Shown here in pieces: positions 15,855 through 43,557 of a DNA stretch of 43,668 nucleotides. The notes below the pieces were generated by a model. The model was not told the origin of the DNA and made no database searches. It saw only the letters and a program-made list of their open reading frames with translations. The position numbers and the translations under genes are program-made. This DNA comes from Thermodesulfovibrionales bacterium. Its GTDB lineage: Bacteria > Nitrospirota > Thermodesulfovibrionia > Thermodesulfovibrionales > SM23-35. Numbering within the stretch: position 1 is the stretch's first letter; every line of letters begins with the position of its first letter. Where the stretch lies: NCBI GenBank assembly GCA_020062205.1, contig JAGUWT010000284.1, positions 1-43,668 of the forward strand. Direction: 5' to 3'.

Positions 15855-15855
15855 C

Positions 15856-17625: not shown

Positions 17626-17723
17626 TTTTTGAAGACTTTAAGGAAAGTTCTCTATAAGGTTAGGTCAAAATTATTCATAGTTGAGAGGGCTTTGCCATTT
17701 GAGCTTTCACTACAGAGGTAAAC

Positions 17724-18992: not shown

Positions 18993-19006
18993 GATTAGTG
19001 AAATCG

Positions 19007-24583: not shown

Positions 24584-24619
24584 TGGTTTAATCAGAAAGG
24601 TTATGACAGGGGGTGATAG

Positions 24620-27451
24620 TTGAGCCTCTGTCTGTTGTTTATTATATTCTTATCGTTGCTTTTACCATGTGCAGCTGAAGAAATAAATGTCTCCCTCACT
24701 ATTCACGAAGCCTTAAGGGAAGGAGTCACCGGAATTGACAGGATACAGGAACCCGTAACAGTTGGAATTCCGTTTCCAAAGGGAATTCTTTCTGAAAAAA
24801 ATGGAGTGCCTCAATTAGCCCTTGAAGGGGTTAGAGAATATCAATTCCGCACCCTTGCTAAATGGCCTGATGGGTCTATGAAATGGGTACTTGTTGATTT
24901 TCAGACAAGTGTTAAATCTGGCGGCATCAATAATAATATTCATGTGATCAGGGGCAGCGGGAATTCCCCTGGCGAATTGGCAGAAGATAAAGGCGAGGTA
25001 ATCTCTATTAACACAGGAGTAATGAGTGTTCAAATAAAAAAGAAAGGTTTTAATCTCTTTGACAGCGTAATAATGGAAGGCAGAGGGATTATTGCAAAAG
25101 GAACTTCGAAGAGTATTGTTGCCATCGGGGAAGAAGGAAAGGAATATCTGGCGTTAAATGACTCAAAGACGAAGGTTTCGATTGAAGAAAACGGTCCTGT
25201 AAGAGCGGTAATAAAGGCAAAAGGAACTCATGTCGGAAATGGCAAAAGGATGATGGACTATACAGTGAGGATGCATTTTTACAAAGGCAAATCCATGGTA
25301 AGAGTGTTCTATACACTTCGTAATGCAAGTAAAGAACAGTTTGAACATGCTTATATACGTTCTCTCGATCTTGTCACTAAGTTATCATTCAACGGACCCT
25401 ACCAGATAGGTATAGCCGGGCATAATAGTGTTATAAAGGAACAGTTATCAGAAAAAGATGACAACGTGGTTTACTATCAGGCGGTTTCAGATTTTCCACA
25501 AGAGTATGCAGGTGATGCCTTTTATGATAAAGCACCCATTCCTCCGGATTACAAAAGAGAGAAAGAACGAGGATTTGTGCAGGAAGGGTACTGGATTAAA
25601 AAGGGTGAGAGAGAATTAGCAAGAGGGAAGAGAAAGGAATATCCTGATCTTGCGTTTCTCGATATCAGTGATAAAGACGGCAAAGGGGTAACCATCGGTA
25701 TCCGCTTTGCTGCAGGATGGTGGCCAAAAAGCCTGCGTGCCAGTGGTGCCGGTATAATTGAGGTTGGATTATGGCCCAAGGAAAACAAAGTAGGTTACTG
25801 GATAAGATATGGAAGCCATAATACATTTGAAGTAATGTATGAATTTCATGATAGAGCCAACGATCCTGCTGCCTCGATGAAGAAATTTCAATACCCGCTG
25901 GTGGCAAAGGCGTCAGTAGAGTGGTACAACCGAAATGTCAAGGGCATCTACCCCCTCTATAATTTTGTCTCTTTTGCTGAAGAGCAAAATTATATAAAAG
26001 GTAAAGGCTGGGATTATCTGGTCGGCTGGCGAAAACCAAAGATGAAGGTATGGCGTTACCATTATTGGGGGTGGGGAGGATTTTTAAATCAGCATGATTT
26101 TGCACGTATTGGACTGGTGAATTTTTCAAGGGAAACAGAAGATATTGTAAGAGCAGGTGAATACTTTTTAGGCGCTGAAGCGAGATTCAATTATAATGCC
26201 GACTGGGCTGTATACCACTCTGATGATTATGACCTTTCAGCTACCGAAAGGGGTAAATGGAGATTGCCTGACCCGGAAAAGAACAGAGAAAAGGCGCAAC
26301 TGGCAAAGGTTGTCTTTGAGTGGGAACATCCCCATTGGTATGGTATGCCTCTTTATTACTATATGACGGGGGATGAGCGGATCAAGGAGGCTATTCTGGA
26401 TTGGGCTGAGTATGTAAAAAAAACCCACACAAATATAACAATGGGTTCTTATCAGCGGGTCTGGGGATGGGGAATGTATACATTAGCTGCAATGTACGAT
26501 TTTACTGGTGATAAAACATTTATAGACATAGCCGATAAAAACTTCATCTGGCTTCTTGAAAACAGAGATGATTCACAGCATCGAGGAAGTACTATATTCA
26601 TCGATTGGAATCGAGGCTATATAGCAGGTGGCCCTGGAAGCGGATGGGGAAAAGAGCATGGACTTAAGCCGGGTCTCATGACAGGCTATGTACTTTTTGA
26701 TGGATTATATAACTATTATCTCTATATGGATGAAAGTAATCCACTTAAGAGAAGGGTAGCCGATGTATTAGAGGGCCTTTCGGAGTTTATGTACAGAGAG
26801 CCCTATGTCGAAGGTCGAAAGGGAGGGCACTGGGCTTTCTGGCTTCCTTATTCCTATAATCTTGAAAATAAGTCAAAGTCAGAGCATCAATACCGTCTTA
26901 TACTTCAGGCATTCTATGTCAATTTAGCCGATTATCTATTCAATGGAGGAGATAGATGGTTAGAAAGAATAGATAAGACTATAAGAATGGCTGGATGGGA
27001 CGAAAGCGGAATCTGGGATCATTTCGGTTTTATTGACCATCCTGGACTGCAATCCATGTTATATCTTCAATTACATCCCAGAACTGATATACTCCCTCCA
27101 GAGCCCGTTAAAGACCTTTCTGTAAGAGTAAATGGCGGTCATGTTATCTTAAGCTGGACTGCACCGGCTGATGCAGTGCGTTATCAGATTAAGTTCTCAA
27201 CAAAGAAACTTGTGGAATCCCTTGAGTTCGATCCAGATAAAAGGATATATAAATACAACCCTGCAGAATATGCCAACTGGTGGGCAGGAGAAAATATATT
27301 AGATGAGATCAATCCAGGAACGTCGGGAACAAAACAACAACATATCATAAAAAATCTGAAGCCCGGACATCATTATATTGCGATCAGGAGTTGGGATGCC
27401 TCAAACAACCGAAGCAGAATTTCCAATCTGGCAGAAGTTGAGATTAAGTAA
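24620..27451 (+). CDS. large secreted protein (N-terminal beta-rich region, central toroid-like region, C-terminal Fn3-like domain); possible glycan lyase/hydrolase
   Basis: TTG start after gggggtg. Signal peptide MSLCLLFIIFLSLLLPCAAEE. The N-terminal VTVGIPFPKG..WPDGSMKWVLVDF reminds me of YetA / exo-rhamnogalacturonan-lyase-like proteins. The C-terminal PEPVKDLSVRVNGGHVILSWTAPADAVRYQIKFS is Fn3-like. Confidence 0.55.
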   Translation: MSLCLLFIIFLSLLLPCAAEEINVSLTIHEALREGVTGIDRIQEPVTVGIPFPKGILSEKNGVPQLALEGVREYQFRTLAKWPDGSMKWVLVDFQTSVKSGGINNNIHVIRGSGNSPGELAEDKGEVISINTGVMSVQIKKKGFNLFDSVIMEGRGIIAKGTSKSIVAIGEEGKEYLALNDSKTKVSIEENGPVRAVIKAKGTHVGNGKRMMDYTVRMHFYKGKSMVRVFYTLRNASKEQFEHAYIRSLDLVTKLSFNGPYQIGIAGHNSVIKEQLSEKDDNVVYYQAVSDFPQEYAGDAFYDKAPIPPDYKREKERGFVQEGYWIKKGERELARGKRKEYPDLAFLDISDKDGKGVTIGIRFAAGWWPKSLRASGAGIIEVGLWPKENKVGYWIRYGSHNTFEVMYEFHDRANDPAASMKKFQYPLVAKASVEWYNRNVKGIYPLYNFVSFAEEQNYIKGKGWDYLVGWRKPKMKVWRYHYWGWGGFLNQHDFARIGLVNFSRETEDIVRAGEYFLGAEARFNYNADWAVYHSDDYDLSATERGKWRLPDPEKNREKAQLAKVVFEWEHPHWYGMPLYYYMTGDERIKEAILDWAEYVKKTHTNITMGSYQRVWGWGMYTLAAMYDFTGDKTFIDIADKNFIWLLENRDDSQHRGSTIFIDWNRGYIAGGPGSGWGKEHGLKPGLMTGYVLFDGLYNYYLYMDESNPLKRRVADVLEGLSEFMYREPYVEGRKGGHWAFWLPYSYNLENKSKSEHQYRLILQAFYVNLADYLFNGGDRWLERIDKTIRMAGWDESGIWDHFGFIDHPGLQSMLYLQLHPRTDILPPEPVKDLSVRVNGGHVILSWTAPADAVRYQIKFSTKKLVESLEFDPDKRIYKYNPAEYANWWAGENILDEINPGTSGTKQQHIIKNLKPGHHYIAIRSWDASNNRSRISNLAEVEIK

Positions 27452-30269: not shown

Positions 30270-32216
30270 ATGTGTGGCATAGTCGGAATCATAAATACCG
30301 TTTTAACACCTGAAAGGTCTCTTTTAGAGAAGATGTGTAGGATAATGACCCACAGAGGGCCTGATGGGGAGGGGTGTTACATTGAAGGACCTATCGCTCT
30401 TGGACACAGGAGATTGAGCATTATAGACCTTGAGGGTGGAAAACAACCAATGAGTAATGAAGATGACACAGTGTGGATTACCTTCAATGGAGAAATATAT
30501 AACTTTCCCGATGTTCAAAGAGAACTTGAAAAAAAAGGACATCGATTTAAAACAAGAAGCGATACTGAAGTGATTATTCATGCATATGAAGAATATGGGA
30601 AAGAGTGCATAAAGTATTTCAGGGGGATGTTTGCATTCGGAATTTGGGATAGTAAAAAAAAGGAACTCTTTCTTGCACGTGACCGTCTTGGGAAGAAGCC
30701 TCTTTACTATTATGTTGATGACAGGAGTTTTATCTTTGCCTCAGAAATAAAGGCAATCCTTCAGGATGAATATATAAAAAGAGAACTTGATGTAAAGGCA
30801 CTGGCTGATTACTTTACCTATCATTACGTTCCGTTTCCTGAAACAATATTCAAAGGCATACATAAACTGCCACCAGGACATTTAATGACTGTTCGAATTG
30901 TTCAAGATGTTCGAGACGTTCAAGTCGTTTCGAACAAGTGTAATGATCGAACGAGCGAAGCGATCGAACATATCGAATTTACTATTCATCAATACTGGGA
31001 TATTGAATATAAACCGGACTATTCTCTATCAGAACAGGAGTGGGTAGAGGCATTAAAGGAAAAACTGAAAGAAGCAGTCAGGATCAGGCTTATCAGTGAT
31101 GTGCCACTTGGGGCGTTTCTCAGTGGAGGGATAGATTCAAGCACTGTTGTTGCATTCATGAGTATGGTTCAGAACACACCTGTCAAAACATTCTCAATAG
31201 GGTTCAAAGAAGAGGATTTCAGCGAAGTGAAATATGCACGGGAGGTTGCCAAGAGGTTTGGAACTGAACATCAGGAAATGGTGGTCGAGCCCGATGCTAT
31301 AGAGGTATTACCAAAGCTCGCATGGGAATTTGACGAACCTTTTGCAGATTCTTCAGCCATACCTACCTATTATGTATCTAAAATGGCGAGGAAGTATGTA
31401 ACCGTCATCCTTTCTGGTGATGGCGGTGATGAAACCTTTGCTGGCTATAGGAGGTATCTATGGGCAAGGGATATGCATAAATACGACTGGATACCTCTGC
31501 CTTTGAGGGCAATAGTATTCGGAATTCCTGCTGCACTACTCCCAGATGGTATGAGAGGCAAAGGTATGCTCAGGCACCTTTCAAACGGTCCCTTTGAGCG
31601 ATATGCAGGTCTTAATACCTTTGGAGAACTGAACTCCCTCAAAAATCTCTTGAGCACAGATGTTCTGAACGAAGTCCAAAAGAGACAAAATGGGAGGTTG
31701 CATGACTATGCCTTTCTCAAGAAGTATTATGACTTCTGTAAGCATGACGACTATCTCACAAAGATACAATACATGGACACAAAGACCTACCTTGCTGAGG
31801 ATATTCTAACCAAGGTAGATAGGGCAAGCATGCTCTGTAGTCTGGAGACCCGTGCTCCATTACTTGATCATGAGGTAATTGAACTTGTTGCCAGAATTCC
31901 ATCATCCATGAAGATAAAAGATGGTGAGACGAAATATATCCTCAAAAAGGCAATGGATGGAATCCTCCCTGATACGATTTTGTATAGAAAAAAAATGGGC
32001 TTTGGGGTGCCTCTTATATATTGGTTTAAGAAAGATTTAACACAATATGCACGTGAGGTTCTTCTTTCTCAGGAAACTAAACATCGAGGAATATTTAATC
32101 AGAGCTATATCAAGAATATTTTGGAGAGACATCAGAAAAAGGGAAGAGACCTGAGTGCTAAGATATGGGCACTTCTTTTTTTCGAACACTGGTGCAGGAA
32201 CTGGCTTGATACATAA
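30270..32216 (+). CDS. asnB: asparagine synthase (glutamine-hydrolysing) family amidotransferase, exosortase-locus type, with an in-frame repeat insertion
   Basis: MCGIVGII (Cys2 nucleophile), HRRLSIIDL, RDRLGKKPLYYY and the PP-loop GAFLSGGIDSSTV. The extra segment IVQDVRDVQVVSNKCNDRTSEAIEHIE follows PPGHLMTV. Confidence 0.9.
   Translation: MCGIVGIINTVLTPERSLLEKMCRIMTHRGPDGEGCYIEGPIALGHRRLSIIDLEGGKQPMSNEDDTVWITFNGEIYNFPDVQRELEKKGHRFKTRSDTEVIIHAYEEYGKECIKYFRGMFAFGIWDSKKKELFLARDRLGKKPLYYYVDDRSFIFASEIKAILQDEYIKRELDVKALADYFTYHYVPFPETIFKGIHKLPPGHLMTVRIVQDVRDVQVVSNKCNDRTSEAIEHIEFTIHQYWDIEYKPDYSLSEQEWVEALKEKLKEAVRIRLISDVPLGAFLSGGIDSSTVVAFMSMVQNTPVKTFSIGFKEEDFSEVKYAREVAKRFGTEHQEMVVEPDAIEVLPKLAWEFDEPFADSSAIPTYYVSKMARKYVTVILSGDGGDETFAGYRRYLWARDMHKYDWIPLPLRAIVFGIPAALLPDGMRGKGMLRHLSNGPFERYAGLNTFGELNSLKNLLSTDVLNEVQKRQNGRLHDYAFLKKYYDFCKHDDYLTKIQYMDTKTYLAEDILTKVDRASMLCSLETRAPLLDHEVIELVARIPSSMKIKDGETKYILKKAMDGILPDTILYRKKMGFGVPLIYWFKKDLTQYAREVLLSQETKHRGIFNQSYIKNILERHQKKGRDLSAKIWALLFFEHWCRNWLDT
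30891..30978. repeat. GTTCRA/TCGAAC 9-nt-periodic palindromic element, copy in the asnB coding sequence
   Basis: Units are gttcgaatt gttcaagat gttcgagac gttcaagtc gtttcgaac aagtgtaat gatcgaacg agcgaagcg atcgaacat atcgaat. That is ten 9-nt units, about 30 codons. Confidence 0.75.
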
Positions 32217-32254
32217 AGATGGCAACTAGTTTTGTCCCTTATAGAGAGCGGTTA

Positions 32255-32524
32255 TGAGGAGGATATAAATATTCCTGTCACAGTACGTGAGGCTCTAAGA
32301 AAGGTGTCAGTGGGATTGATAGGACCGAGGAGACGGTTACAGGTTGGTATAACCCTTTCCAAGGGGAATGCTTTATGAGAAAATGGGTATGCCACAATTA
32401 TCAGTTGATGGTATGAAAGACTATCAATTTCGCATGCTGAAGCAGGATGATGGTTCAGTAAAATGGGGATAAACATAATAACAGAGTAAGATTTCTAATC
32501 TCGCCGAGGTAGAGATTAAATAAA
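32255..32524 (+). pseudogene. internally deleted, decayed paralogue of the 943-aa secreted protein gene
   Basis: 32255-32472 aligns to codons ~20-95 of 24620..27451 (EEDINIPVTVREALR.., VGITLSKG.., DGMKDYQFRMLKQDDGSVKW). It contains two in-frame TGA stops and frameshifts. 32481-32524 aligns to the last 14 codons plus stop (aacagagtaagatttctaatctcgccgaggtagagattaaataa versus aaccgaagcagaatttccaatctggcagaagttgagattaagtaa). Confidence 0.85.
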
Positions 32525-32602
32525 AACAAAAATATCATTCCTTCAAAGGTGGGTAAATAGTTTGAATATCTATAATAGTTTTAAATTGGAGAAGAACTAA
32601 AT

Positions 32603-35600
32603 TTGAAAAGGGAACACGAAGCATCACGCACCCGTATAGAAAAAGTACTATCGAAAATCTGGGCTGAAGTCCTCGGTCTTGAGCGAATCCACGTTGAGGA
32701 TAATTTTTTTGAGTTAGGTGGTGATTCTATCAATGTCCTTCAGGTGATCGCTATAGCCAATCGTGAAGGCTTACAATTTACTCCGAAACAGTTTTTTCAA
32801 CATCCTACCATTGCTGAGCTAGCTACCGTAACGGTTCCACTTTCAACTTCATGTGCAGAACAGGGTATCGTCAAAGGCAGGATACCACTAACTCCTATTC
32901 AGCACTGGTTTTTTGAACAGGGAGTCCCAGAACCAGAGCAATGGACACAGTCTATATTGCTTGAAGTGCATCACCCTCTTAAAGTTTCTATATTGCAAGA
33001 AGCCATTCGACACTTGCTTGTTCATCACGATGCACTGCGTGTGCGCTTTACCCCAGGGGAGCTGGGTTGGGAACAGTTTTGCGTTGGTAACGAAGAATTA
33101 GTACCGTTTAACAGGTTAGATTTGTCAGGACTTTCAGGTGGAGAGTTAAAACATGTCATTGAGGCTGAAGCAGCAAAATTGCGTGCTGGTTTAAACATAT
33201 CAAAGGGACCACTTATGCAAGTAGCCCTCTTTGACCTTGGCACTTCCCAACCGAATCGACTACTTATAGTCATTCATCATTTAGTAGCGGACGGTGTTTC
33301 ATGGCGGATCTTGCTGGGGGATCTCCAGACAGCCTATATGCAACTCAGCCGTGGTGAATTAATAAAACTGCCTGCCAAGACGACCTCGTTAAAGCAGTGG
33401 GCAGAACGACTTGAGGCATATGCACAATCAATAGAGCTGCGACATGAGATGAAATACTGGCTTGCACAGCCATGGAGTCAAGCAGGATGTTTACCTGTGG
33501 ACTTTCCAGATGGTGACAATACCGAGGCTTTGGCTTGGGCTGTGTCGGTTTCGCTCACTGCTGAAGAGACAAAGGCTATTTTACAGGAGATTCCCAAGGT
33601 ATACCATGTCCGTGTCAACGATATCTTGATCACGGCGCTGGTGCAGGCCTTTGCACCATGGATCGGAAAGGATTGTCTTCTCATAGATCTAGAAGGTCAC
33701 GGTCGGGAGGCTATTTTCGATGATGTGGATCTGTCTCGGACGGTGGGGTGGTTTACCTCAATTTTTCCTGTGCTGCTGGATCTTAAGAATGCGTCAGGAC
33801 TCAGGAGTACCATGAAGTTGACACAGGAACAAATGAATCATATTCCGCATAAAGGTATTGACTATGGCATACTGCGCTACCTCAGCAGTGCTGAAAATGC
33901 TCGTCGACTTCAAAGTCTGCCTCAGGCCGAGGTTAGTTTTAACTACTTTGGACAATTCGATCAACTATTTTCAGGCACATCTATGTTTAAGCCAGCCTCT
34001 GAAACTATTACTCCTGTACAGTTAAAGGGTCTATTGCAAGAGTCATATGGGTTAAAGGGAACACGGAGGCATTTAATAGATATTAGTGGAAGCGTATTTA
34101 ATGGCAAGCTTTGGTTTAACTGGACGTATAGCAAGAACGTTCATCGCGAAACGACAATCCGTTACCTTGCTGAAGACTACGTGGCTGCACTCCGCTCGAT
34201 TATTAATAGCTATCAGTCTACCGAGGCCGAGTCTTACAAACCTTTCAACTCTCGGGGGACCTTCTTATGCAATGAAGAGTTTGATGCTAAAAATAAACAG
34301 CTCATTGAAGGCAGCGCTACAGGTGATAAGAGTTTGGAAAATGTTGAGGCTATTTTCCCGCTTTCCGCCATGCAGCGGGGGCTTTTATTTCACAGTCTTC
34401 AGAATCCCGAGTTGGGTATCTACATCGTGCAGGATTGTTACATGCTTTATGGTGACTTAAACATGCCGGCATTTAGGGAGGCTTGGATGCATGTATCAAA
34501 GCGACATACCGCCCTGCGGACTGTATTTATCCCAAAAGGGCACAAACAGCCACTTCAGGCCATTCACAAGGTAGTAAATTTATTAATCGAAGAACATGAT
34601 TGGCCTGATCTGGGAGCAACCGATCAGAAAGAGCAAATAGAGTCTTTCCTCAAGATGGACCGCGAAAAGGGCTTCGACCTTACAAAGAGTCCACCACTGC
34701 GTCTTGCCATAATCCGATTAACCAAAGACGTCTATCAATTTATTTTAAGTTTCCATCACGCATTACTTGATGCTTGGTCTGTGTCTTTACTAATCAGGGA
34801 AGTTTTTGACTTCTATCAGGCACTCTGTTATGGGAGTGAGTACAAAATGGATTCAAACCATCCCTATATGGATTATATTACATGGCTTCATCAGCAGGAT
34901 CTGTCCCAGGCTGAGGGTTTCTGGCGGCAGATACTGAAAGGGTTTACAGCACCGACACCTTTAGGAATGATTGCAGAGCGTAATGGTTTATCATGCCATG
35001 TTGATGGTTTTAGTGAAGGAGAAATTAAGTTATCTGCAGCCACTACGGCAGCGTTGCAGTCCTTTGCACAGCGTCATCATCTCACTCTTAATACCCTGAT
35101 TCAGGGTTCGTGGGCCCTGTTGCTAAGTCACTATAGTGGTGAGAAGGAAGTAGTCTTTGGGGTCGTTGTGTCTGGTCGTCCACCTGCTCTGGAAGGAGTC
35201 GAGTCCATGGTAGGACTATTTATCAATACCTTACCAGCACGGGTACAGATACATGACAAGGAGACACTATTTCTTTGGTTGAAGAAGCTTCAAAACCAGC
35301 AAGTTGAGATGAGACAGTATGAATATAGTCCTTTGGTAAAGGTAAAAGAGTGGAGTGAAATTCCAAGCGGTGTTCCTCTGTTCGAGAGTATATTGCTTTT
35401 CCAGAATTACCCGGTGGACGATATGTTAGTAGCGAGGCATGGAAACTTAAAGATAGAGAATGTACGAACAGTGGAAAGGACTAATTATCCACTTACCCTG
35501 GTAGCAATACCAGGTTCAGAATTAATATTGCGGCTCATGTACCATACCCCTCGTTTTAATGCTTCTACCATTGCCCAGATGCTTGACCATTTACAAACCT

Positions 35601-36472
35601 TGCTGGAGGGCATGCTTGCCAATCCACAGGCGCGACTTTCAGACATCCCGTTGTTAACCGCAGCACAACAGCGCCAACTCCTTGTTGAATGGAATAATAC
35701 CAAAACGGACTACCCCAGGGATGCAACTATCCCTGAACTGTTTGAGGCACAGGTAGAACAGACACCCGACACCGTAGCAGTTATATTTGGAGACCATCGA
35801 CTTACTTATCGGGATTTGAATCAGAGAGCAAACCAGCTATCGCACTACCTGAGGTACTTAGACGTTTCACCGGAAGTGCGGGTTGCTATTTGTATGGAAC
35901 GCTCCCTGGAAATGGTAATAGGACTTTTAGGCATACTCAAAGCAGGTGGTGCATACGTGCCTCTTGACCCCTTGTACCCTAAAGAAAGGCTATCGTTCAT
36001 GCTGGCAGATGCTCAGGTGCCAGTGTTGTTGACCCAAAAGCAGCTGATTCAGAGATTGCCAAAGCATATGGCTAGGGTAGTGTGTCTTGATGAAGAGTGG
36101 GGACATATAGCAGGAGAAAGCGACCAAAATCCACCCAGGAGAACTAAGGCGGAAAACCTAGCCTGTATAATTTATACTTCAGGTTCAACCGGCAAGCCAA
36201 AAGGAGTGGAAGTTCTCCACCGTGGTATTGTTCGTTTATTATTCGGCACGGATTACGTCAAGCTTGATGCGACACAGAGATTTTTGCATATGTCTGCAAT
36301 CACCTTTGATGCTTCTACCTTTGAGATTTGGGGAGCATTGCTTCATGGTGCCCAATGTGTTCTCTTGCCGGGAAGAATACCTAGTTTAGAAGAAATAGGC
36401 ATGGCGATACAAAAATATGGCATTACCACCCTCTGGTTAACAGCTGCACTATTCAACGTGATATATAGATGA
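32603..36472 (+). CDS. non-ribosomal peptide synthetase, N-terminal part (T-E-C and A-domain cores A1-A4), interrupted by a frameshift
   Basis: TTG start 11 nt after ggag. T domain: FFELGGDS (Ser codon 32726-32728). E domain: PIQHWFF, HHLVADGVSW (33275), LEGHGRE, RTVGWFTSIFP, FNYFGQ. C domain: SAMQRGLLF, HHALLDAWS (34754). A domain: LTYRDLN, LKAGGAYVPLDP, IIYTSGSTGKPKG (36173), FDAS. It ends at TGA 36470-36472 in the middle of the A domain. Confidence 0.9.
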   Translation: MKREHEASRTRIEKVLSKIWAEVLGLERIHVEDNFFELGGDSINVLQVIAIANREGLQFTPKQFFQHPTIAELATVTVPLSTSCAEQGIVKGRIPLTPIQHWFFEQGVPEPEQWTQSILLEVHHPLKVSILQEAIRHLLVHHDALRVRFTPGELGWEQFCVGNEELVPFNRLDLSGLSGGELKHVIEAEAAKLRAGLNISKGPLMQVALFDLGTSQPNRLLIVIHHLVADGVSWRILLGDLQTAYMQLSRGELIKLPAKTTSLKQWAERLEAYAQSIELRHEMKYWLAQPWSQAGCLPVDFPDGDNTEALAWAVSVSLTAEETKAILQEIPKVYHVRVNDILITALVQAFAPWIGKDCLLIDLEGHGREAIFDDVDLSRTVGWFTSIFPVLLDLKNASGLRSTMKLTQEQMNHIPHKGIDYGILRYLSSAENARRLQSLPQAEVSFNYFGQFDQLFSGTSMFKPASETITPVQLKGLLQESYGLKGTRRHLIDISGSVFNGKLWFNWTYSKNVHRETTIRYLAEDYVAALRSIINSYQSTEAESYKPFNSRGTFLCNEEFDAKNKQLIEGSATGDKSLENVEAIFPLSAMQRGLLFHSLQNPELGIYIVQDCYMLYGDLNMPAFREAWMHVSKRHTALRTVFIPKGHKQPLQAIHKVVNLLIEEHDWPDLGATDQKEQIESFLKMDREKGFDLTKSPPLRLAIIRLTKDVYQFILSFHHALLDAWSVSLLIREVFDFYQALCYGSEYKMDSNHPYMDYITWLHQQDLSQAEGFWRQILKGFTAPTPLGMIAERNGLSCHVDGFSEGEIKLSAATTAALQSFAQRHHLTLNTLIQGSWALLLSHYSGEKEVVFGVVVSGRPPALEGVESMVGLFINTLPARVQIHDKETLFLWLKKLQNQQVEMRQYEYSPLVKVKEWSEIPSGVPLFESILLFQNYPVDDMLVARHGNLKIENVRTVERTNYPLTLVAIPGSELILRLMYHTPRFNASTIAQMLDHLQTLLEGMLANPQARLSDIPLLTAAQQRQLLVEWNNTKTDYPRDATIPELFEAQVEQTPDTVAVIFGDHRLTYRDLNQRANQLSHYLRYLDVSPEVRVAICMERSLEMVIGLLGILKAGGAYVPLDPLYPKERLSFMLADAQVPVLLTQKQLIQRLPKHMARVVCLDEEWGHIAGESDQNPPRRTKAENLACIIYTSGSTGKPKGVEVLHRGIVRLLFGTDYVKLDATQRFLHMSAITFDASTFEIWGALLHGAQCVLLPGRIPSLEEIGMAIQKYGITTLWLTAALFNVIYR
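32624..32827 (+). other. NRPS domain: carrier (T/PCP) domain 1
   Basis: IWAEVLGLERIHVEDNFFELGGDSINVLQV. Confidence 0.85.
32882..34207 (+). other. NRPS domain: epimerisation (E) domain
   Basis: All seven E-type cores were recognised by eye: PIQxWF, HHxxxDGVSW, DILITA, EGHGRE, RTVGWFT, GIDYG and FNYxGQ. Confidence 0.8.
34343..35647 (+). other. NRPS domain: condensation (C) domain, presumably DCL type because it follows E
   Basis: Motifs LSAMQRGLLFH, RHTALRTVF, HHALLDAWS, GLFINTLP and NYPLTLVA. Confidence 0.8.
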
Positions 36473-37211
36473 GGCACCACGGATATTAGATGGCATCCGG
36501 CAGTTGCTTGTTGGTGGAGATGCGCTTTCAGTTTCGCATGTTCTCAAAGCCCTTGAGGTTTTACACACCATACAGATCATCAACGGCTATGGTCCCACTG
36601 AGGGCACGACATTTACCTGTTGTTATACTATTCCTCGTCAACTTGATAAAACCGCGCTATCAATCCCTATAGGGCGTCCCATTTCCAATACACAAGTCTA
36701 CCTGCTTAATTCATATCTGCAGCCGGTGCCCGTTGGGGTTCCAGGTGAAATTTACATTGGAGGAGATGGTCTTGCCCGAGGCTATCTCAATCAGCCCGAA
36801 TTAACAGCCGAAAAGTTTATCCCCAATCTGTTCAATGATGACCCGGGTGCACACCTGTACAAGACAGGGGATCTGGCACGTTACCTGCCAGACGGTAATA
36901 TTGAGTTCATCGGTCGTCTTGACCATCAGGTGAAGATCCGTGGCTTCCGGATCGAGCTGGGAGAGATTGAGTCAGTGTTAGGACAACATCCCGCTGTTCG
37001 TCAAGTAGCGGTAATTACCCGTGAAGATGTACCCGGCAGCAAAAGCCTAGTAGCCTACATTGTCCCTGTTCGCGAAGGAGTTATCTCGGCACGGGAGATG
37101 AGGCATTTCTTGAAAGAAAAGCTACCAGACTATATGATTCCCTCTGCTTTTGTATTTTTGGAAGCTTTGCCGTTAACGCCGAATAACAAAATAAACCGCA
37201 AAGAGTTACCA
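35720..37211 (+). other. NRPS domain: adenylation (A) domain, spanning the frameshift at about 36461-36469
   Basis: Cores A1-A10 are present across the two frames. The hand-derived specificity code is D A F W L G G T F K. Confidence 0.8.
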
Positions 37212-38243
37212 CCGCCAAGCCATAAGCCCAGTAACCGAAAGGAGTGTTTTGTGGCACCACAGGATGCTATTGAGGTTCATCTGATGAGGATTTGGGAGGA
37301 TATTTTAGACATACACAAGATAGGGATAAGGAATAACTTTTTCGAATTAGGCGGCAACTCCCTTCAGGCCGTTCGTCTGATAGATAAAATTGAACATTTT
37401 TTTGGCAAGAGGCTGCCTTTGGATATCCTCTGGCACAATGGATCAACCATAGAAGATATGGCTGTTGCTCTTCGAAGGGAGGAAGGCTCCACTCTCTGGT
37501 CCTCTGCTATACCGATCAAGCCCGATGGTTCACGAAGATCATTATTCTGCACTCATATCGCTGGAGGGTACTTTTTTTATTACGATAAATTAGCCAGCTA
37601 CCTAAACCAAAAACAACCTCTTTATGCAATACCACCTCAGTATGTTGATGGTAAACATCATCCTCACACAACGATTGAAACGATGGCATCACACTGCATC
37701 CAACTCATGAGACAGGTTCAACCAGAAGGTCCATATTCTATCGCCGGCTTCTGCAGTGGTGGTGTGATAGCTTTCGAAATGGCCCAGCAGCTTCATGCAC
37801 AGGGTGAAGAAATGGCATTGTTAGCATTATTAGACAGTCTGGCTCCGGGCTTTCATTTGCGTCTTTTTATTCGAGTATTGTTAGATTTTCTCCGGTTAAA
37901 GAATGTGAGGCTTGTGCAGGAACGTTTGTACCACATGTTTTTGCGGGCATTTGGTATGCCGCATCTTCGTGTTTTCCAAAAGGCTAGCGAAGCCCACCGT
38001 TGGGCTTTGTGGAGCTATAAAGCCAAGCCTTACTCGGGGCGTATTACCCTGTTTCGGCCAAGTAAATACAAGTATTCCAGTGATCCCCTGTTGGGCTGGG
38101 GTAAGCTCGCAATGGAGGGAGTGGATGTTCATGTGATTCCTGGTAAGCACGGAGAAATGGTTAAAGAACCTATTGTACAGGTCATGGCCAAACAACTCGA
38201 AACCCATCTTGCTGGGATAGATGCTAATGAAAAGACAGTTTAA
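36504..38243 (+). CDS. non-ribosomal peptide synthetase, C-terminal part (A-domain cores A5-A10, T, TE)
   Basis: The frame is open from 36462 (YIDEAPRILDGIRQLLVGGDAL). A domain: NGYGPTE, GEIYIGGDGLARGY, YKTGDLARY, GRLDHQVKIRGFRIELGEIE, LPDYMIPS, NNKINRKEL. T domain: FFELGGNS (Ser 37359-37361). TE domain: GFCSGG (Ser 37755-37757) and GKHG (His 38148-38150). Confidence 0.9.
   Translation: MLVGGDALSVSHVLKALEVLHTIQIINGYGPTEGTTFTCCYTIPRQLDKTALSIPIGRPISNTQVYLLNSYLQPVPVGVPGEIYIGGDGLARGYLNQPELTAEKFIPNLFNDDPGAHLYKTGDLARYLPDGNIEFIGRLDHQVKIRGFRIELGEIESVLGQHPAVRQVAVITREDVPGSKSLVAYIVPVREGVISAREMRHFLKEKLPDYMIPSAFVFLEALPLTPNNKINRKELPPPSHKPSNRKECFVAPQDAIEVHLMRIWEDILDIHKIGIRNNFFELGGNSLQAVRLIDKIEHFFGKRLPLDILWHNGSTIEDMAVALRREEGSTLWSSAIPIKPDGSRRSLFCTHIAGGYFFYYDKLASYLNQKQPLYAIPPQYVDGKHHPHTTIETMASHCIQLMRQVQPEGPYSIAGFCSGGVIAFEMAQQLHAQGEEMALLALLDSLAPGFHLRLFIRVLLDFLRLKNVRLVQERLYHMFLRAFGMPHLRVFQKASEAHRWALWSYKAKPYSGRITLFRPSKYKYSSDPLLGWGKLAMEGVDVHVIPGKHGEMVKEPIVQVMAKQLETHLAGIDANEKTV
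37257..37469 (+). other. NRPS domain: carrier (T/PCP) domain 2
   Basis: IWEDILDIHKIGIRNNFFELGGNSLQAVRL. Confidence 0.85.
37530..38198 (+). other. NRPS domain: type I thioesterase (TE)
   Basis: LFCTHIAGGYFFYYDKLA, GFCSGG (GxSxG) and the C-terminal GKHGEM. Confidence 0.8.
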
Positions 38244-39027
38244 AAATACCTTACAGGATACACCTGAGTTGCAATGGCTGACTCCACCAGAGCAACTAAT
38301 CCTTGCTAATGACGAGGTTCACATCTGGCGGTTATACATAAATTCAGAATTCTCTAATATCCAATATCTTAAAGGGATACTTTCTAACGAAGAACGTACT
38401 AAGGCTGAAGGATTCTATTTTAAAATAGATCAATGGCGGTATATTATAGTTCGAGCCATACTGAGAATAATCCTTGCTAAATACCTGTGTCTTGAACCTG
38501 AACAAATTCGATTCAACTATGGAACACATGACAAGCCTGCCTTATCCGATGTGCTGAAGACACATAGAGTCAATTTCAATTTGTCCCACTCTCAAAATAT
38601 AGCTTTATATGTAATAGTTTGTGATCGAGAGGTTGGAATAGACATTGAAAATATTCGTACCGATTTGGATGTCTTGGGAATTGCAGAACATTGGTTTTCT
38701 CAGCGAGAAGCTGCTGTTATCAGGGAATTATCCTCAGATGCACAGAAGAAGGCATTTTTTACGATTTGGACTCGCAAGGAGGCGTATCTAAAGGCAAAAG
38801 GAGTGGGATTAGCCCAACTGAATGGGTTTGAAGTTTTATTACATCTTGGAGAGCTTACTATTTTGATGAGCAGTGAAGAAGATTCCCACGAACCATCACT
38901 CTGGAAACTGGAAGACCTGGCAGTTGACCCTGATTATGCAGCCACTGTTGCTGTTGAGGGTAAAACATGGACCCCAAAATTCTGGCAATGGAGCCCAATT
39001 TATAAACTCGAAAGGTTCTTCTTTTAA
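38221..39027 (+). CDS. 4'-phosphopantetheinyl transferase, Sfp type
   Basis: ATG 38221 overlaps the NRPS 3' end by 23 nt. Motifs HDKPAL, NFNLSHSQNIA, VGIDIE and FFTIWTRKEAYLKAKG. Confidence 0.9.
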   Translation: MLMKRQFKNTLQDTPELQWLTPPEQLILANDEVHIWRLYINSEFSNIQYLKGILSNEERTKAEGFYFKIDQWRYIIVRAILRIILAKYLCLEPEQIRFNYGTHDKPALSDVLKTHRVNFNLSHSQNIALYVIVCDREVGIDIENIRTDLDVLGIAEHWFSQREAAVIRELSSDAQKKAFFTIWTRKEAYLKAKGVGLAQLNGFEVLLHLGELTILMSSEEDSHEPSLWKLEDLAVDPDYAATVAVEGKTWTPKFWQWSPIYKLERFFF

Positions 39028-39060: not shown

Positions 39061-39168
39061 TGTTATATCCAGACTATGTTAGAAATACATCAAAAAAGGG
39101 GAAGAGACCTGAGTGCCCCTTTGTGGGCATTGCTCTTTTTTGAATACTGGTGCAGGAATTGGATGTAG
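39061..39168 (+). pseudogene. remnant of the last 35 codons of an AsnB paralogue
   Basis: It translates to CYIQTMLEIHQKRGRDLSAPLWALLFFEYWCRNWM-stop. The C-terminus of the 30270..32216 product is SYIKNILERHQKKGRDLSAKIWALLFFEHWCRNWLDT. 24 of 35 residues are identical. A TAA lies immediately upstream and there is no N-terminal part. Confidence 0.85.
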
Positions 39169-39170
39169 GT

Positions 39171-40388
39171 GTGAAAATCCTCGTTATTACAACCATCTTT
39201 CCTAATTCAAAACAGCACACCCTCGGCATCTTTGTGAGAGAAAGGATGTTTCAGGTTGCAAAACACTGTGAGATAAAGGTCGTAGCTCCTGTTCCATGGT
39301 TTCCTTTTGTGCGGTATATCAAGAAGGGTTATAGACCAAAGGTTCCTTTTTTGGAGATTCAGGATGGGATAGAGGTATACCATCCGCGCTTCTTCAATAT
39401 CCCGAAACTTTGTAAATTTCTTGATGGAATCTTTTTCTTTATATCATCTATACTTACAACAATAAACTTAAGAAAAAGCTTTAAGTTTGATATTATTGAT
39501 GCACACTTTATTTATCCTGAGGGATTTGGGGCGGTACTTCTTGGCAAGGTAATAAGAAGGCCTGTCATTATTACAGAAAGGGGAACTATACGAAAACTAT
39601 TAAAGTATCCCCTTATTAAACCTCAGATTCAATATGCCTTGGGCAAGGCCGTAAAAGTCTTTACGGTCTGCAATGATCTGAAAAAGGCTGTTACAGAGCT
39701 TGGCATCCCTGAAAAAAGGGTAGTAGTCGTCCCGAATGGAGTTGATATTGAAAAGTTTAAGCCTGTTGAGAAGCAAAAGGCCCGGAAAGAACTTGGGCTC
39801 TTAGAATATAAAAAGATTATCATCTCAGCGGGCGGACTTGTTGAAAGAAAGGGATTTCATAGGATTATCTCTGTCCTCCCTGAGATTAAAAAAACCATAC
39901 CAGAAATAATGTATGTGATCGTTGGAGGAGCCTCTGTTGAAGGTAACTATGAGCCGGTATTACGCAAGATGGTCAAGGATTTAAATCTTGAAAATGATGT
40001 CTTATTCGCAGGACCTCAGCCCCATGATGTTCTCTACAAATGGCTCAGTGCATCAGATATCTTCTGCCTCGCAACAAGCAATGAGGGATGGGCAAATGTT
40101 TTTTTAGAGGCAATGGCCTGTGGACTTCCTGTTGTTACAACACGTGTTGGCGGTAATGAAGAGGTGGTTATATCTGAGGATTATGGATTACTTTTCAATT
40201 TAGAAGACAGACAAGAGATGATTGATATGATATTGAAAGCCTTGAAGAAAGACTGGGGTAGAGAAAAGATTGTCCACTATGCACGATCAAATACATGGGA
40301 CGAGCGGATTCATGATTTGCTCAATAATATCAAAGATATCATTAATCCTGATAAATCCTATGTTTCAGCTAAGGTGTTTACGCCATAA
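39171..40388 (+). CDS. glycosyltransferase family 4 (GT-B)
   Basis: The likely start is GTG 39171 (MKILVITTIFP), directly after the remnant's TAG. The ORF track start at 39150 lies inside the remnant. Motifs NGVDIEKF and TSNEGWANVFLEAMACGLPVVTTRVGGNEEVV. Confidence 0.85.
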   Translation: MKILVITTIFPNSKQHTLGIFVRERMFQVAKHCEIKVVAPVPWFPFVRYIKKGYRPKVPFLEIQDGIEVYHPRFFNIPKLCKFLDGIFFFISSILTTINLRKSFKFDIIDAHFIYPEGFGAVLLGKVIRRPVIITERGTIRKLLKYPLIKPQIQYALGKAVKVFTVCNDLKKAVTELGIPEKRVVVVPNGVDIEKFKPVEKQKARKELGLLEYKKIIISAGGLVERKGFHRIISVLPEIKKTIPEIMYVIVGGASVEGNYEPVLRKMVKDLNLENDVLFAGPQPHDVLYKWLSASDIFCLATSNEGWANVFLEAMACGLPVVTTRVGGNEEVVISEDYGLLFNLEDRQEMIDMILKALKKDWGREKIVHYARSNTWDERIHDLLNNIKDIINPDKSYVSAKVFTP

Positions 40389-40510: not shown

Positions 40511-41842
40511 ATGAAACCTCTCATCAGAAATATCCTGTTGCCCTTCCATGAATATCTCAAAGGACACATGACGCTCAAAATGCTTAAAGACCTTGAAAGA
40601 ACGCAATGGCTTACGACCGAAGAATTAAGACAATTACAGAGACAAAAATATAAAGCCATTGTTGCATTTGTTCAGGAAAATGTCCCTTTCTACAGAGATT
40701 TGTTGGCATCACAATCAGATGGTGTCCAATTCCCTTACCTGAGGAAAAACGATATCCGAAACAATTTCAAGAGGATGTGTTCAGAAAAGGCGAATGGACT
40801 CGTTCGATCCAATACAGGCGGTTCTACGGGAGAACCATTGATATTCTATCTTGGTAAAAGGCGCATTAGTGCAGATGTAGCTGCAAAGATAAGAGCTACG
40901 AAGTGGTGGGGCGTTGATATCGGTGACAAAGAAGTGGTTATCTGGGGATCACCAGTTGAATTTACAAAGCAGGATAGAATACGGACGTTCAGGGACTGGC
41001 TCTTCAGGACAAGGCTCCTCTCCGCCTTTGATATGACAGAGGAGACAATGTTTGAATATCTAAATTTTATGAGAGAATTTAAGCCACTCCATGTATTCGG
41101 TTATCCAAGTTCAATACACGTGCTGTGTAAATATGCACGGAAAAAAAATATCAGGCTCGATGACATAGGTGTAAAGGTAGTTTTTTGTACTGCTGAAAGG
41201 CTCTATGATGATCAACGAGAGTTTATTTCCGAGGTATTTTCAGCACCTGTTGCCAATGGCTATGGAGGAAGAGATTCTGGGTTCATTGCCCATGAATGTC
41301 CTGAAGGGAGAATGCATATCACCGATGAGAACATTATGGTAGAAATTGTTGTCAGCACCGGAAATATTTTGCAACCAGGAGAGACAGGAGAGATTGTCAT
41401 AACCCATCTTGAATCTCATGATTTCCCCTTTATCAGGTATAAAACCGGTGACATCGGAGCGCTATCTGATGAAACGTGTCCATGCGGGAGAGGACTGAGC
41501 GTTTTGAAAGCAATTGAAGGAAGGGGTACTGACTTTATCGTTACTCCTAAAGGTAAGATAATGCATGGGCTTTCACTTATATATGTAGTTAGAGATACAG
41601 AAGGGATTGAGGAGTTCAAAATAGTTCAGGAAGACTACGACAAGATTAACCTCTTTCTCTCAGTCAATGAGAAATTTTCAGAGAAACATGCCTTGGGAAT
41701 AAAAAAGGGTTTTTCAAAGAGACTGGGCGCAGATGTAAACATTACCATTCATTATGTAGATAAAATCTCTCACGAGAAATCTGGAAAATATCGATATGTT
41801 GAGTCACATGTACAACAGCCATATGCCCAAATCCATAGGTAA
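40511..41842 (+). CDS. phenylacetate-CoA ligase / CapK-like adenylate-forming enzyme
   Basis: Motifs SNTGGSTGEPLIFY, GYPSS, IRYKTGDIG, GRGTDFIV and a C-terminal SGKYRYV. Confidence 0.8.
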   Translation: MKPLIRNILLPFHEYLKGHMTLKMLKDLERTQWLTTEELRQLQRQKYKAIVAFVQENVPFYRDLLASQSDGVQFPYLRKNDIRNNFKRMCSEKANGLVRSNTGGSTGEPLIFYLGKRRISADVAAKIRATKWWGVDIGDKEVVIWGSPVEFTKQDRIRTFRDWLFRTRLLSAFDMTEETMFEYLNFMREFKPLHVFGYPSSIHVLCKYARKKNIRLDDIGVKVVFCTAERLYDDQREFISEVFSAPVANGYGGRDSGFIAHECPEGRMHITDENIMVEIVVSTGNILQPGETGEIVITHLESHDFPFIRYKTGDIGALSDETCPCGRGLSVLKAIEGRGTDFIVTPKGKIMHGLSLIYVVRDTEGIEEFKIVQEDYDKINLFLSVNEKFSEKHALGIKKGFSKRLGADVNITIHYVDKISHEKSGKYRYVESHVQQPYAQIHR

Positions 41843-41864: not shown

Positions 41865-41999
41865 TGTCATTGCGAGCACCCGAAGGGTGCGTGGCAATCT
41901 CATCGAAAACAACGAGATTGCGGAGCTTGTTCCGAACGAAGTGAGGAATCCTGCTCCGGTTTGCTTCGGCTTCGCCTCGCAACTTCACTCGCAATGACA
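41865..41999. repeat. palindromic intergenic element (TGTCATT...AATGACA family), copy 3, 135 nt
   Basis: The termini tgtcattgcgag and ctcgcaatgaca are perfect reverse complements. Internal hairpins: gcaccc-gaa-gggtgc and gcaatctc (41893-41900) / gagattgc (41913-41920). Confidence 0.75.
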
Positions 42000-42067
42000 A
42001 GTTTTATCGCTGGATTTAAAATATGAATAACGTAGTTAATAAAGAGATGTGCCAGGAGAATATATAA

Positions 42068-42922
42068 ATGCCAACGACAAAAGCTCTTCCCTATTATAAA
42101 TTTGTTTTCCTATCACTCTTGGTGTTTGTTTTATATTTTCCTGAGCTTAGTGTCATGGTGAGTGATTGGGCAGATAAAAAAGAATACTCACACGGTTTCC
42201 TCATACCCCTCATATCTGGTTATATCATATGGACCAAGAGAGAAACCTTCCGTAAATCACCTGTTATGCCTGATTTGAAAGGGATTTTCATACTTTTACT
42301 GGGAATTGCCTTATTGATGCTTGGGCATGTTGCATTTGAACCTTATACACGACGATTTTCTTTCATCATAACCATTTTGGGACTCATATACCTTCTCTGC
42401 GGGAGCAGGATAGTTAAGATACTGCTGTTTCCATTAGGATACCTCATTTTTATGATCCCGCTGCCCTATGTCATCATAAAAACCATAGCAGTCAGTCTCA
42501 GGCTTGTTAGTGCAAAAGTTACATACACTATTCTTAAATTTTCCGGCATACCAATATGGCGAGAAGGTGTCAATTTAGAACTACCCAATATAAGTCTTGT
42601 GGTAGCTGACCTTTGCACCGGAATACTATCACTCGTTGCCATAACAGCATTGTCTGTTCTCTACGCATACTTTACACAGAGAAATTTGATAAGCAGGTTA
42701 GCCCTCGTTTTTCTGTCTATCCCTATTGCCATTTTAAGTAATATGTTCAGACTTATCATAACTGTTGGACTTGCTTATTTTTATGGTGGAAAGATTCTGG
42801 GAAATGTTATCCATCAATTTCATGGTACTGTCAACTTCCTTCTCACCATATTCTTGCTTATTCTTATAAGCGGTCTTATTCGAAAGGTAGATCTTGCCTT
42901 GAGTAAGAGGAAATCACCATGA
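42068..42922 (+). CDS. exosortase (EpsH/Xrt family transpeptidase)
   Basis: RBS aggag. Motifs DWADKKEYSHGFLIPLISGYIIW, VVADLCTGILSL (Cys), SNMFRLII (Arg) and HQFHGTVNF (His). About 8 TM segments. Confidence 0.9.
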   Translation: MPTTKALPYYKFVFLSLLVFVLYFPELSVMVSDWADKKEYSHGFLIPLISGYIIWTKRETFRKSPVMPDLKGIFILLLGIALLMLGHVAFEPYTRRFSFIITILGLIYLLCGSRIVKILLFPLGYLIFMIPLPYVIIKTIAVSLRLVSAKVTYTILKFSGIPIWREGVNLELPNISLVVADLCTGILSLVAITALSVLYAYFTQRNLISRLALVFLSIPIAILSNMFRLIITVGLAYFYGGKILGNVIHQFHGTVNFLLTIFLLILISGLIRKVDLALSKRKSP

Positions 42923-43557
42923 AGAAGGACGATATCTATTATCTCATTGCATGCGCAATCTTGATTCTCGCAAGCATCTCCATTAAGGGTTATAGTCACG
43001 AAGTAAGGGTTCCCTTGCCACAGGCGATTGATGGTATCCCAAGAGAATTCGGTGAATTTATCGGCATAAATGAACATCCCTCTGATAGAAACTACCTCGA
43101 CTCATCAGCAGATCAATGGATTTTCCGGATTTATAACCAAAGGGGAAGTGATAAACCAATACGTGTTTTTGTTGGATACTGGGAAAGTCAGAATGAACAA
43201 AAGAGGGTCACTCCTCCACGGTATACAGCTGAAGGATGGGAATATTACTGGATCAAAACAAAACCTCTTTCATTAGGGACAGACGCTTTTGTGAGTGTGA
43301 AAGAATTTCTCAACGAAAAAGGACAAGAAAAAGAACTGGTCTATTACTGTTATATTGTTGATGGTAAGATCGTTTTAGATGAATATCAGCTCAGACTGCT
43401 CAACGTTGTAAATTTATTGTTGTACCGAAAAAGCAATGCAGCCCTTGTGAGGTTATCAGTGTCTGTTACAACCGATTTTCCGGTGGAGAATGCAGAGGTT
43501 TTGGGAGAGAAATTTTTAAAGGAATTCTTACCGCTTCTCAAAAAATATCTCTCATAG
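42919..43557 (+). CDS. EpsI family (exosortase-associated) protein
   Basis: ATGA overlap with the exosortase stop. N-terminal anchor helix. IRVFVGYWESQNEQKRVTPP is typical of the EpsI domain. Confidence 0.7.
   Translation: MKKDDIYYLIACAILILASISIKGYSHEVRVPLPQAIDGIPREFGEFIGINEHPSDRNYLDSSADQWIFRIYNQRGSDKPIRVFVGYWESQNEQKRVTPPRYTAEGWEYYWIKTKPLSLGTDAFVSVKEFLNEKGQEKELVYYCYIVDGKIVLDEYQLRLLNVVNLLLYRKSNAALVRLSVSVTTDFPVENAEVLGEKFLKEFLPLLKKYLS

Follow-up and report, generated by a model that had tools for sequence, protein, structure and literature searches.

Whether a nonribosomal peptide synthetase (NRPS) can serve as a working accessory of an exosortase system is the question raised by a 43,668-nucleotide contig from a Thermodesulfovibrionales bacterium (GenBank assembly GCA_020062205.1, contig JAGUWT010000284.1), analyzed at its full length and referred to below as the window. 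The window carries a cassette of an NRPS and an Sfp/HetI-type 4'-phosphopantetheinyl transferase (PPTase) within an exopolysaccharide (EPS) operon. An earlier note on this DNA had placed the cassette between an asnB gene and a glycosyltransferase gene, on the same strand as the exosortase and EpsI genes that follow about 3 kb downstream, and this placement, in which the neighbours are an asnB-type amidotransferase gene and a GT4 gene, is borne out by the positions of the open reading frames (ORFs) and their profile matches. The note had also proposed that the NRPS makes a D-Xaa-L-Val unit with which the EPS is decorated. The reading that we prefer, and hold to be rather probable, is that the cassette is a horizontally acquired, 5'-truncated end-fragment of an NRPS with its PPTase, lying in a recombination scar, frameshifted, and non-productive as assembled.

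Domain order and the interrupted adenylation domain

Pfam and NCBIfam profiles were matched to the ORFs of the window, and the domain series thiolation (T), epimerization (E), condensation (C), adenylation (A), T, and thioesterase (TE) is read across two ORFs, followed by the PPTase, with all three ORFs on the same strand (Table 1). The order T-E-C-A-T-TE and the motifs given in the earlier note are thus confirmed by the domain profiles, but the single megasynthetase is not, as the protein is divided over two ORFs by a +1 frameshift within the A domain. ORF1 contains two stretches of the Condensation superfamily, the first of which is an E domain according to its motifs and its match to TIGR01720 (113 bits, cutoff 74.2), and both carrier domains, T1 and T2, keep the serine to which phosphopantetheine is attached (PF00550 matched twice). 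At GTGATATATAGATGAG ORF1 runs into a TGA codon and homology is picked up in another frame, the AMP-binding profile being left at position 270 of 384 at the end of ORF1 and resumed at position 291 in ORF2. Deletion of one base in silico resulted in a continuous protein of 1879 amino acids that matches the AMP-binding profile over positions 1–384 of 384 (308 bits), and comparison with homologues such as P0077 (ALFNSIINDAP) shows a one-base insertion to be the most parsimonious lesion. As assembled there is no uninterrupted A domain, with motifs A1–A10 present and the frame interrupted between A4 and A5. The NCBI and JGI gene calls both give two separate NRPS ORFs, and no other split-looking gene is present in the 43.7-kb window, which would argue against a generally indel-prone assembly. 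Programmed frameshifting at GTGATATATAGATGAG was considered as well, and we infer that it does not operate there, as the site has no slippery or cognate re-pairing codon.

The lesion falls between the A-domain specificity positions 278 and 299. With the numbering verified on the GrsA PheA sequence, for which DAWTIAAICK was reproduced, the code of the repaired protein is DAFWLGGTFK. This differs by one conservative change from DAFWIGGTFK, which we take to be the canonical Val code among the Stachelhaus codes, and the A domain is therefore of the Val type. The C domain is colinear in the alignment with the post-E C domains of homologues and by its context would be of the DCL type. The D-Xaa-L-Val unit of the earlier note fits, because T and E precede this C domain and the A-domain code is of the Val type. 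On paper, that part of the proposal stands; a working line behind it finds no support, with T1 lacking a loader in the window and the A domain frameshifted.

The N terminus of ORF1 lies eight residues ahead of helix 1 of T1, and homology to other multi-module NRPSs sets in abruptly at 32600, at the A-T linker. No A-domain remnant was found upstream of T1, either by tblastn with the N termini of homologues or in the three-frame translation. Because homology starts at 32600 and nothing resembling an A domain lies upstream, T1 is without a loading domain in cis, and no amino-acid A domain that could load it is present elsewhere in the 43.7-kb window. The sole other adenylate-forming gene in the window is CapK/PaaK-like; its product is an unlikely loader of T1, since the gene is kept in relatives that have no NRPS and the E domain implies an aminoacyl substrate. 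Homologues that match up to the first residues of the query have either A-domain sequence before T or a gene start at or near the contig edge. The two candidates for natural T-first homologues are both poor evidence, as P0115 starts at nt 49 of its contig, 48 nt from the edge, and P0099 almost fills its 6.5-kb contig. As neither carrier domain can be loaded as assembled, the assembly line should make nothing.

The TE matches PF00975 with 96–99 bits and has a cysteine as its nucleophile, located in GFCSGG (37746–37763) and encoded by TGC at 37752–37754, with the Asp (LLDS) and His (GKH) of the triad also present. In the alignment the cysteine falls on the Ser of 7crn and on the Cys of AB3403, an Acinetobacter baumannii protein (PDB 4ZXH), and the Asp is located after β6, where AB3403 has its "position I" Asp. 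AB3403 is a C-A-T-TE termination module with a Cys TE and has the same layout as the second module of the window; GFCSGG aligns with GWCFGG and LLDS with MIDT (PMC11298585). In contrast to the window, AB3403 is a complete free-standing module with an uncharacterized product, and the similarity between the two TEs is modest (E = 1.3e-14). In the Cys TEs of ObiF1 and SulM the triad Asp is at "position II", and SulM also has Gln-Cys-Asn (PMC11298585; PMC6668435). A TE of the β-lactone/β-lactam-forming kind, as in these two enzymes, can be set aside for the window, where the Asp is not at "position II" and the local sequence is F-C-S and not the Q-C-N of SulM.

Both PPTase profiles are matched above their cutoffs (PF01648, 65.6 bits, cutoff 25; PF22624, 37.7 bits, cutoff 27), and these matches, together with the overlap of the ATG with the TE ORF, agree with the coupled Sfp-type PPTase described in the earlier note. 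The motifs FNLSHS, VGIDIE, and WTRKEAYLKAKG are intact, and the protein has the features of a two-lobed Sfp-type (group II) enzyme, among them the (V/I)G(V/I)D and W/F-x-x-KEA-x-x-K motifs. With 230 bits it falls short of the 370-bit cutoff of the HetI equivalog model and is therefore not a HetI orthologue. No carrier protein besides T1 and T2 is encoded within the window.

Gene stubs around the cassette and its absence from related loci

Stubs of a second PcRGLX-like gene, one with an internal deletion, are present in the 386-nt spacer between asnB and the NRPS. The stubs match residues 9–89 (35–59% amino acid identity) and 931–943 (85%) of the intact 943-residue protein encoded further upstream; the N-terminal stretch of approximately 80 codons contains a stop codon and a frameshift, and of the 3' end the last 13 codons and the stop codon remain. 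On the other side, immediately after the PPTase, the 3' end of asnB recurs as a 99-nt direct repeat with 80% identity (32106–32204 versus 39064–39162), which forms most of a stub of a second asnB allele, asnB'. The last approximately 12 codons of the PPTase extend into this stub. At its end the stub encodes EIHQKRGRDLSAPLWALLFFEYWCRNWM, a peptide that matches the P0124/L078 allele, unlike the intact asnB of the window. The stub is 90% identical at the nucleotide level to L078 (2049–2146; Logan contig, SRR14784668), whereas the intact asnB has 74.5% identity there, and the GT4 gene next to the stub is 77% identical to the GT4 gene of L078. Because the stub is 90% identical to L078 but 80% to the window asnB, and the adjoining GT4 gene 77% to its L078 counterpart, asnB' looks like a patch of different ancestry. 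Since stubs flank the cassette on both sides, the cassette occupies what appears to be the former interior of a second, diverged PcRGLX…asnB block. The listed GTG start of the GT4 gene at 39150 lies inside the asnB' stub, and relatives align only from residue 7–8; translation probably begins instead with the GTG at 39171, right behind the stop codon of the stub.

Five related loci of the Thermodesulfovibrionia/Nitrospirae type (JGI 3300075153, L074, L075, L079, and L080) were compared with the window. The order stp3-GT4, asnB, zero or one gene, GT4, and CapK-like is common to all five, and four of them continue with exosortase (Xrt) and EpsI genes; L080 has Xrt and a 206-aa neighbour upstream of the stp3 GT4 gene. 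None of these syntenic relatives contains an NRPS or a PPTase. The asnB-GT4 junction is empty in three of them, and the NRPS cassette occurs there only in the window. L075 (3348–4679) and L079 (6370–7812) carry an orthologous gene of 443/480 amino acids at this junction; the two products share 80% amino acid identity and have no Pfam match. As the junction is empty, holds the 443/480-aa gene, or holds the NRPS cassette depending on the locus, it is a variable slot.

One further contig of 1084 nt (L081, JGI metagenome 3300037880) is 100% identical to positions 41959–43042 of the window, in the exosortase region, and the same population is therefore present in at least one other dataset. This is the only other contig found for the organism, and it ends short of the NRPS.

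Origin of the cassette and competing explanations

Homologues were sought in a protein collection of 5.8 billion clusters, in GTDB species genomes, and, with the PPTase as query, in JGI metagenome contigs. The best match of ORF1 has about 51% identity in the cluster collection and 53% at best in GTDB genomes, the best PPTase matches have 40–45% identity, and an orthologous cassette turned up in none of these collections. Looking for proteins identical to ORF1 and asnB gave no other contig, and the only cluster members are the gene predictions that NCBI and JGI made on this one contig. Among 73 loci with NRPS homologues, none has Xrt, EpsI, asnB, or CapK homologues within 10 kb. The association with xrt/epsI for which the earlier note had looked to related genomes thus appears neither in these loci nor in the five syntenic relatives, and within the collections searched the NRPS relatives always lie in unrelated contexts.

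The nearest arrangement is found in two contigs of uncultured Caldilineaceae (L015 and L007), which read …C-A-T-E / C-A-T-TE / PPTase / ABC transporters. The end modules of these and of cyanobacterial and acidobacterial NRPSs, each with an adjacent Sfp-type PPTase, are colinear with T-E-C-A-T-TE, showing 44–53% identity over T-E-C-A, about 35% over TE, and 43–45% for the PPTase, which lies directly 3' of the TE gene as in the window. Those clusters differ in having upstream C-A modules and downstream ABC transporters where the window has EPS neighbours, and in the window nothing precedes T1 and the A domain is frameshifted. Synonymous codon usage is least host-like, of all genes in the window, in the two NRPS ORFs (z = −5.7 and −5.1). 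Their GC content is 45–46% versus 37–42%, with the excess mostly at codon position 1.

The host of the operon is a Nitrospirota (Thermodesulfovibrionia-like) bacterium, and in the history that we favor segment 32226–39165 would be a recombination scar in the variable slot of an XrtA-type EPS operon. The scar contains the remnants of a second, diverged PcRGLX-like gene and asnB, and the piece between them would be the 3'-terminal part of a foreign NRPS. The foreign piece, T-E-C-A(Val)-T-TE(Cys) with its cognate Sfp/HetI-type PPTase, probably derives from an A-T-E-C-A-T-TE gene or from the last modules of a larger assembly line of the kind seen in Caldilineaceae. The loading A domain would have been lost at the 5' breakpoint and a single-base insertion would later have disrupted the remaining A domain, so that the fragment would now be on its way to loss, while the intact PPTase ORF may perhaps still be expressed through operon read-through. 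Departures from conserved positions hint at relaxed constraint. Of 197 near-invariant columns (conserved to at least 95% among 119 homologues), 12 (6.1%) deviate in the window protein; the homologues deviate at a median of 1.8%, with 4.7% at the 90th percentile. Among these departures, the C motif reads HHALLDA in place of the HHxxxDG of homologues, with G changed to A, and the A10 motif reads NNK where homologues have NGK.

Several observations weigh against this reading. The comparison at near-invariant columns is biased in that the homologues are nearer to each other than to the window protein. Apart from the one frameshift, the 5.6 kb of coding sequence is free of stops and every catalytic residue is present, so the lesion is either very recent or an assembly or sequencing error. 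The TTG start of ORF1 has a GGAG 12 nt upstream and is placed precisely at the T-domain boundary, and trans-loaded T-first NRPS proteins exist in aryl-capped siderophore lines. The GC content at the third codon position of the NRPS (0.42–0.44) is inside the range of the window's genes, which makes GC content a weak sign of foreign origin, less telling than codon usage, and the codon usage of the PPTase is host-like (z = −0.1), which could indicate long residence.

The main competitor to a dead fragment is a working accessory module, in which the frameshift is an assembly or sequencing artefact and T1 is loaded in trans for a strain-specific decoration of the EPS. The adjacent PPTase would arm T1, an A domain encoded elsewhere would load it with an L-amino acid, and the E domain would epimerize the residue; the C domain would then join the D-residue to Val-S-T2, and the Cys-TE would free D-Xaa-L-Val either hydrolytically or by passing it to a sugar or lipid acceptor. 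Such a module would account for core motifs that are all intact with one lesion in 5.6 kb, for an intact PPTase that overlaps the TE ORF, and for the tight same-strand fit of the cassette within the operon. The second JGI sample shows the organism to be a real population, and the TE resembles that of AB3403, Cys-TEs being capable of non-hydrolytic chemistry (PMC11298585, PMC6668435). Nevertheless, we consider the module unlikely to be working, as 43.7 kb contain no A domain that would supply T1 with an amino acid, the one free adenylate-forming enzyme, which is CapK/PaaK-like, is kept in relatives without a carrier protein, and an E domain would be senseless for an achiral acyl starter. The gene stubs around the cassette, its absence from relatives, the failure to find an orthologue, and the split ORFs in NCBI and JGI calls alike also speak against it. 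A live, strain-specific add-on in the fullest form, with the frameshift erroneous or bypassed, T1 trans-loaded, and the polysaccharide, the lipid that carries it, or a PEP-CTERM protein receiving D-Xaa-L-Val from the Cys-TE, is given a very small chance.

It is also conceivable, as a sub-case of the dead fragment, that the PPTase alone has been retained to serve a carrier protein elsewhere in the genome while the NRPS is dead cargo. The PPTase ORF and motifs are intact and its codon usage is host-like where that of the NRPS is not. However, a short gene gives the codon test little power, the only carriers in the window are T1 and T2, and the C terminus runs into the asnB' stub so that the end of the PPTase is itself a junction product; we regard this possibility as improbable. 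A chimeric metagenome assembly, in which an NRPS piece from another organism was joined in silico, would agree with the higher GC content (45–46% versus 37–42%) and atypical codon usage of the NRPS, with the lack of the cassette in any relative, and with the diverged repeat that brackets the insert. We find it very unlikely, since the two copies of the repeat share only 80% identity and their perfectly matching stretches, about 20 nt in length, would not suffice to confuse a usual assembler, and the NRPS junctions (32525–32603 and about 38990–39002) lie away from the repeats. The PPTase, moreover, has host-like composition and its frame continues into the asnB' stub, and remnants of genes native to the locus at either end of the insert are what a real recombination leaves behind.

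Carrier domains without an A domain in cis, such as T1, have parallels in the T-first, trans-loaded pairs HMWP2/YbtE, PchE/PchD, and EntB/EntE, and in DltA/DltC, where thiotemplate chemistry decorates a cell-surface polymer by D-alanylation of teichoic acids. To our knowledge, each of these systems pairs its carrier with a dedicated stand-alone adenylating enzyme encoded nearby, and in none of them is the first T followed by an E domain. The window differs from them in containing no such amino-acid-activating enzyme.

The literature likewise yielded no precedent for a modular NRPS within an XrtA-type locus, in agreement with the earlier note, which knew of no described exosortase locus with one; the only linkage found is that of N-acyl amino acid synthases (NAS). 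In the part of PMC7293339 that reports the work of Craig et al. (2011), NAS with PEP-CTERM/exosortase are described as an amino-acid-derived pathway beside exosortase/EPS genes, the enzymes being small FeeM-like acyltransferases and the linkage recurrent across many genomes. The window, in contrast, has a thiotemplate fragment that was seen once.

Functional integration of the cassette into the exosortase pathway finds no support, because the A domain is frameshifted, T1 cannot be loaded, stubs flank the cassette, the five relatives lack it, no orthologue was found, and none of the 73 NRPS-homologue loci has xrt/epsI within 10 kb. For genome mining this is a caution, as domain calls in the style of antiSMASH would give an "NRPS in an EPS cluster" and with it the peptide-decorated EPS of the earlier note, which is not supported once the frameshift, the lack of a domain to load T1, and the related loci are taken into account. 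Fragmentary NRPSs and NRPS pseudogenes are commonplace, and a lone copy that is damaged and not conserved establishes no new system. If the cassette is a relic, a conserved exosortase/EPS operon gains and sheds foreign biosynthetic DNA at its asnB-GT4 slot and leaves datable scars, a result of modest value. Thiotemplate chemistry would become newly linked to exosortase systems only with both an artefactual frameshift and an existing trans-loading partner. With a live add-on, a peptide decoration made by such chemistry would for the first time be tied to an exosortase system, and the asnB' and PcRGLX' stubs would then show movement between such loci by homologous recombination.

The surrounding exosortase/EPS operon

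Table 1. Positions of the cassette, its domains, the flanking stubs, and neighbouring genes in the window
Feature	Position (nt)	Strand	Remarks
PcRGLX-like gene, 943 aa	24620–27451		Intact copy
asnB-type amidotransferase, intact	30270..32216	+	Left neighbour of cassette; TIGR03108, TIGR01536
Second PcRGLX-like gene, internally deleted stubs	32226..32524	+	blastn/tblastn versus 943-aa gene at 24620–27451
NRPS ORF1 (T1, E, C, N-terminal two thirds of A)	32603..36472	+	TTG start; Pfam and NCBIfam
T1	32648–32827	+	LGGDS at 32714–32728 (residues 38–42 of ORF1); PF00550; PP-binding residues 16–75
E domain	about 32855–34250	+	HHLVADG, EGHGRE, FNYFGQ; TIGR01720
C domain	34346–35683	+	HHALLDA
A domain, N-terminal two thirds	from 35741	+	A3 TSGSTGKPKG, A4 FDAS
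+1 frameshift site GTGATATATAGATGAG	36458..36473	+	Inside A domain, between A4 and A5
NRPS ORF2 (rest of A, T2, TE)	36504..38243	+	Same frame open from 36462
A domain, rest	to about 37199	+	A5 GYGPTE to A10 PNNKINR; AMP-binding, AMP-binding_C
T2	37281–37463	+	LGGNS at residues 282–286 of ORF2; PF00550
TE	37539–38171	+	GFCSGG, LLDS, GKH; Thioesterase profile
Sfp/HetI-type PPTase	38221..39027	+	ACPS and AASDHPPT_N; ATG overlaps TE ORF by 23 nt
Second asnB allele stub (asnB')	39064..39165	+	Last ~35 codons and stop; abuts GT4 start
GT4 glycosyltransferase	39150..40388	+	Right neighbour of cassette; in relatives directly after asnB
CapK/PaaK-like adenylate-forming enzyme	40511..41842	+	Kept beside exosortase in NRPS-free relatives
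Exosortase	42068–42922	+	PF09721 214.7 bits; TIGR02602 172 bits (cutoff 105.55)
EpsI	42919–43557	+	TIGR02914 65.9 bits (cutoff 42.8)

The whole window is one same-strand EPS operon that contains genes for sugar-nucleotide enzymes, many GT2 and GT4 genes, WecB, and a PgaB-like deacetylase. The intact asnB, of the XrtA/PEP-CTERM system type, scores 720 bits with TIGR03108, just below the cutoff of 816.9, and 544 bits with TIGR01536 (cutoff 267), and its closest relatives, at 72–78% amino acid identity, are in metagenome-assembled genomes of Thermodesulfovibrionia/Nitrospirae and in metagenome contigs. The GT4 protein on the other side of the cassette is 68–73% identical in amino acids to the product of the post-asnB gene in L075, L079, and L080. 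The XrtA-specific model scores 199.1 bits on the exosortase, just under its cutoff of 208, and TIGR03097 (O-antigen-ligase-like; 459 bits, cutoff 188) and TIGR04063 (stp3 GT4; 511 bits, cutoff 442) are matched as well. Exosortase, EpsI, TIGR03097, TIGR04063, and the asnB-type amidotransferase are shared with the XrtA/PEP-CTERM (EpsH) EPS loci of Haft 2006 (PMC1569441). A six-frame regular-expression search for PEP, a hydrophobic stretch, and then a basic C-terminal tail gave no PEP-CTERM protein in the window; PEP-CTERM genes mostly lie elsewhere as single-gene operons (Haft 2006, PMC1569441). Adenylate-forming enzymes are a known accessory of such loci, as the "exosortase A system-associated" family name of the acyl-CoA ligase TIGR03098 indicates. 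The known accessories are stand-alone ligases, whereas the window has a CapK/PaaK-like ligase that is not TIGR03098 together with a modular NRPS, which is present in none of the related loci.

Promoter-like sites are not in excess in the window (30 versus 30.4 expected), and scans of the window for Rfam families, tRNAs, promoters, and terminators gave nothing informative. An AsnB-like protein, whose N-terminal ~70 residues are outside the model match, a Glu/Leu/Phe/Val-type dehydrogenase, and a D-2-hydroxyacid dehydrogenase are encoded together among glycosyltransferases at 15823–20077, and this trio may, independently of the NRPS, supply the EPS with an amino-acid or hydroxy-acid substituent. 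At 23975–27451 an APS kinase gene adjoins the gene for the PcRGLX-like 943-aa protein, and relatives add sulfotransferase, sulfatase, or PAPS-reductase-family genes, which suggests a sulfated EPS. Small passenger genes lie amid the sugar genes at 3602–3961, 10310–10702, 13510–14061, and 14384–14701, two of them encoding TIGR02436 four-helix-bundle proteins, one a Uma2-family protein, and one a UPF0175 protein. The gene at 5246–6232, which encodes a 328-aa protein with a weak match to the squalene-hopene-cyclase C-terminal repeat, has the highest GC content (47.5%) and in the codon-usage likelihood test is nearly as atypical as the NRPS ORFs (z = −4.9, nearly the most atypical outside the NRPS); it may be another foreign insert.

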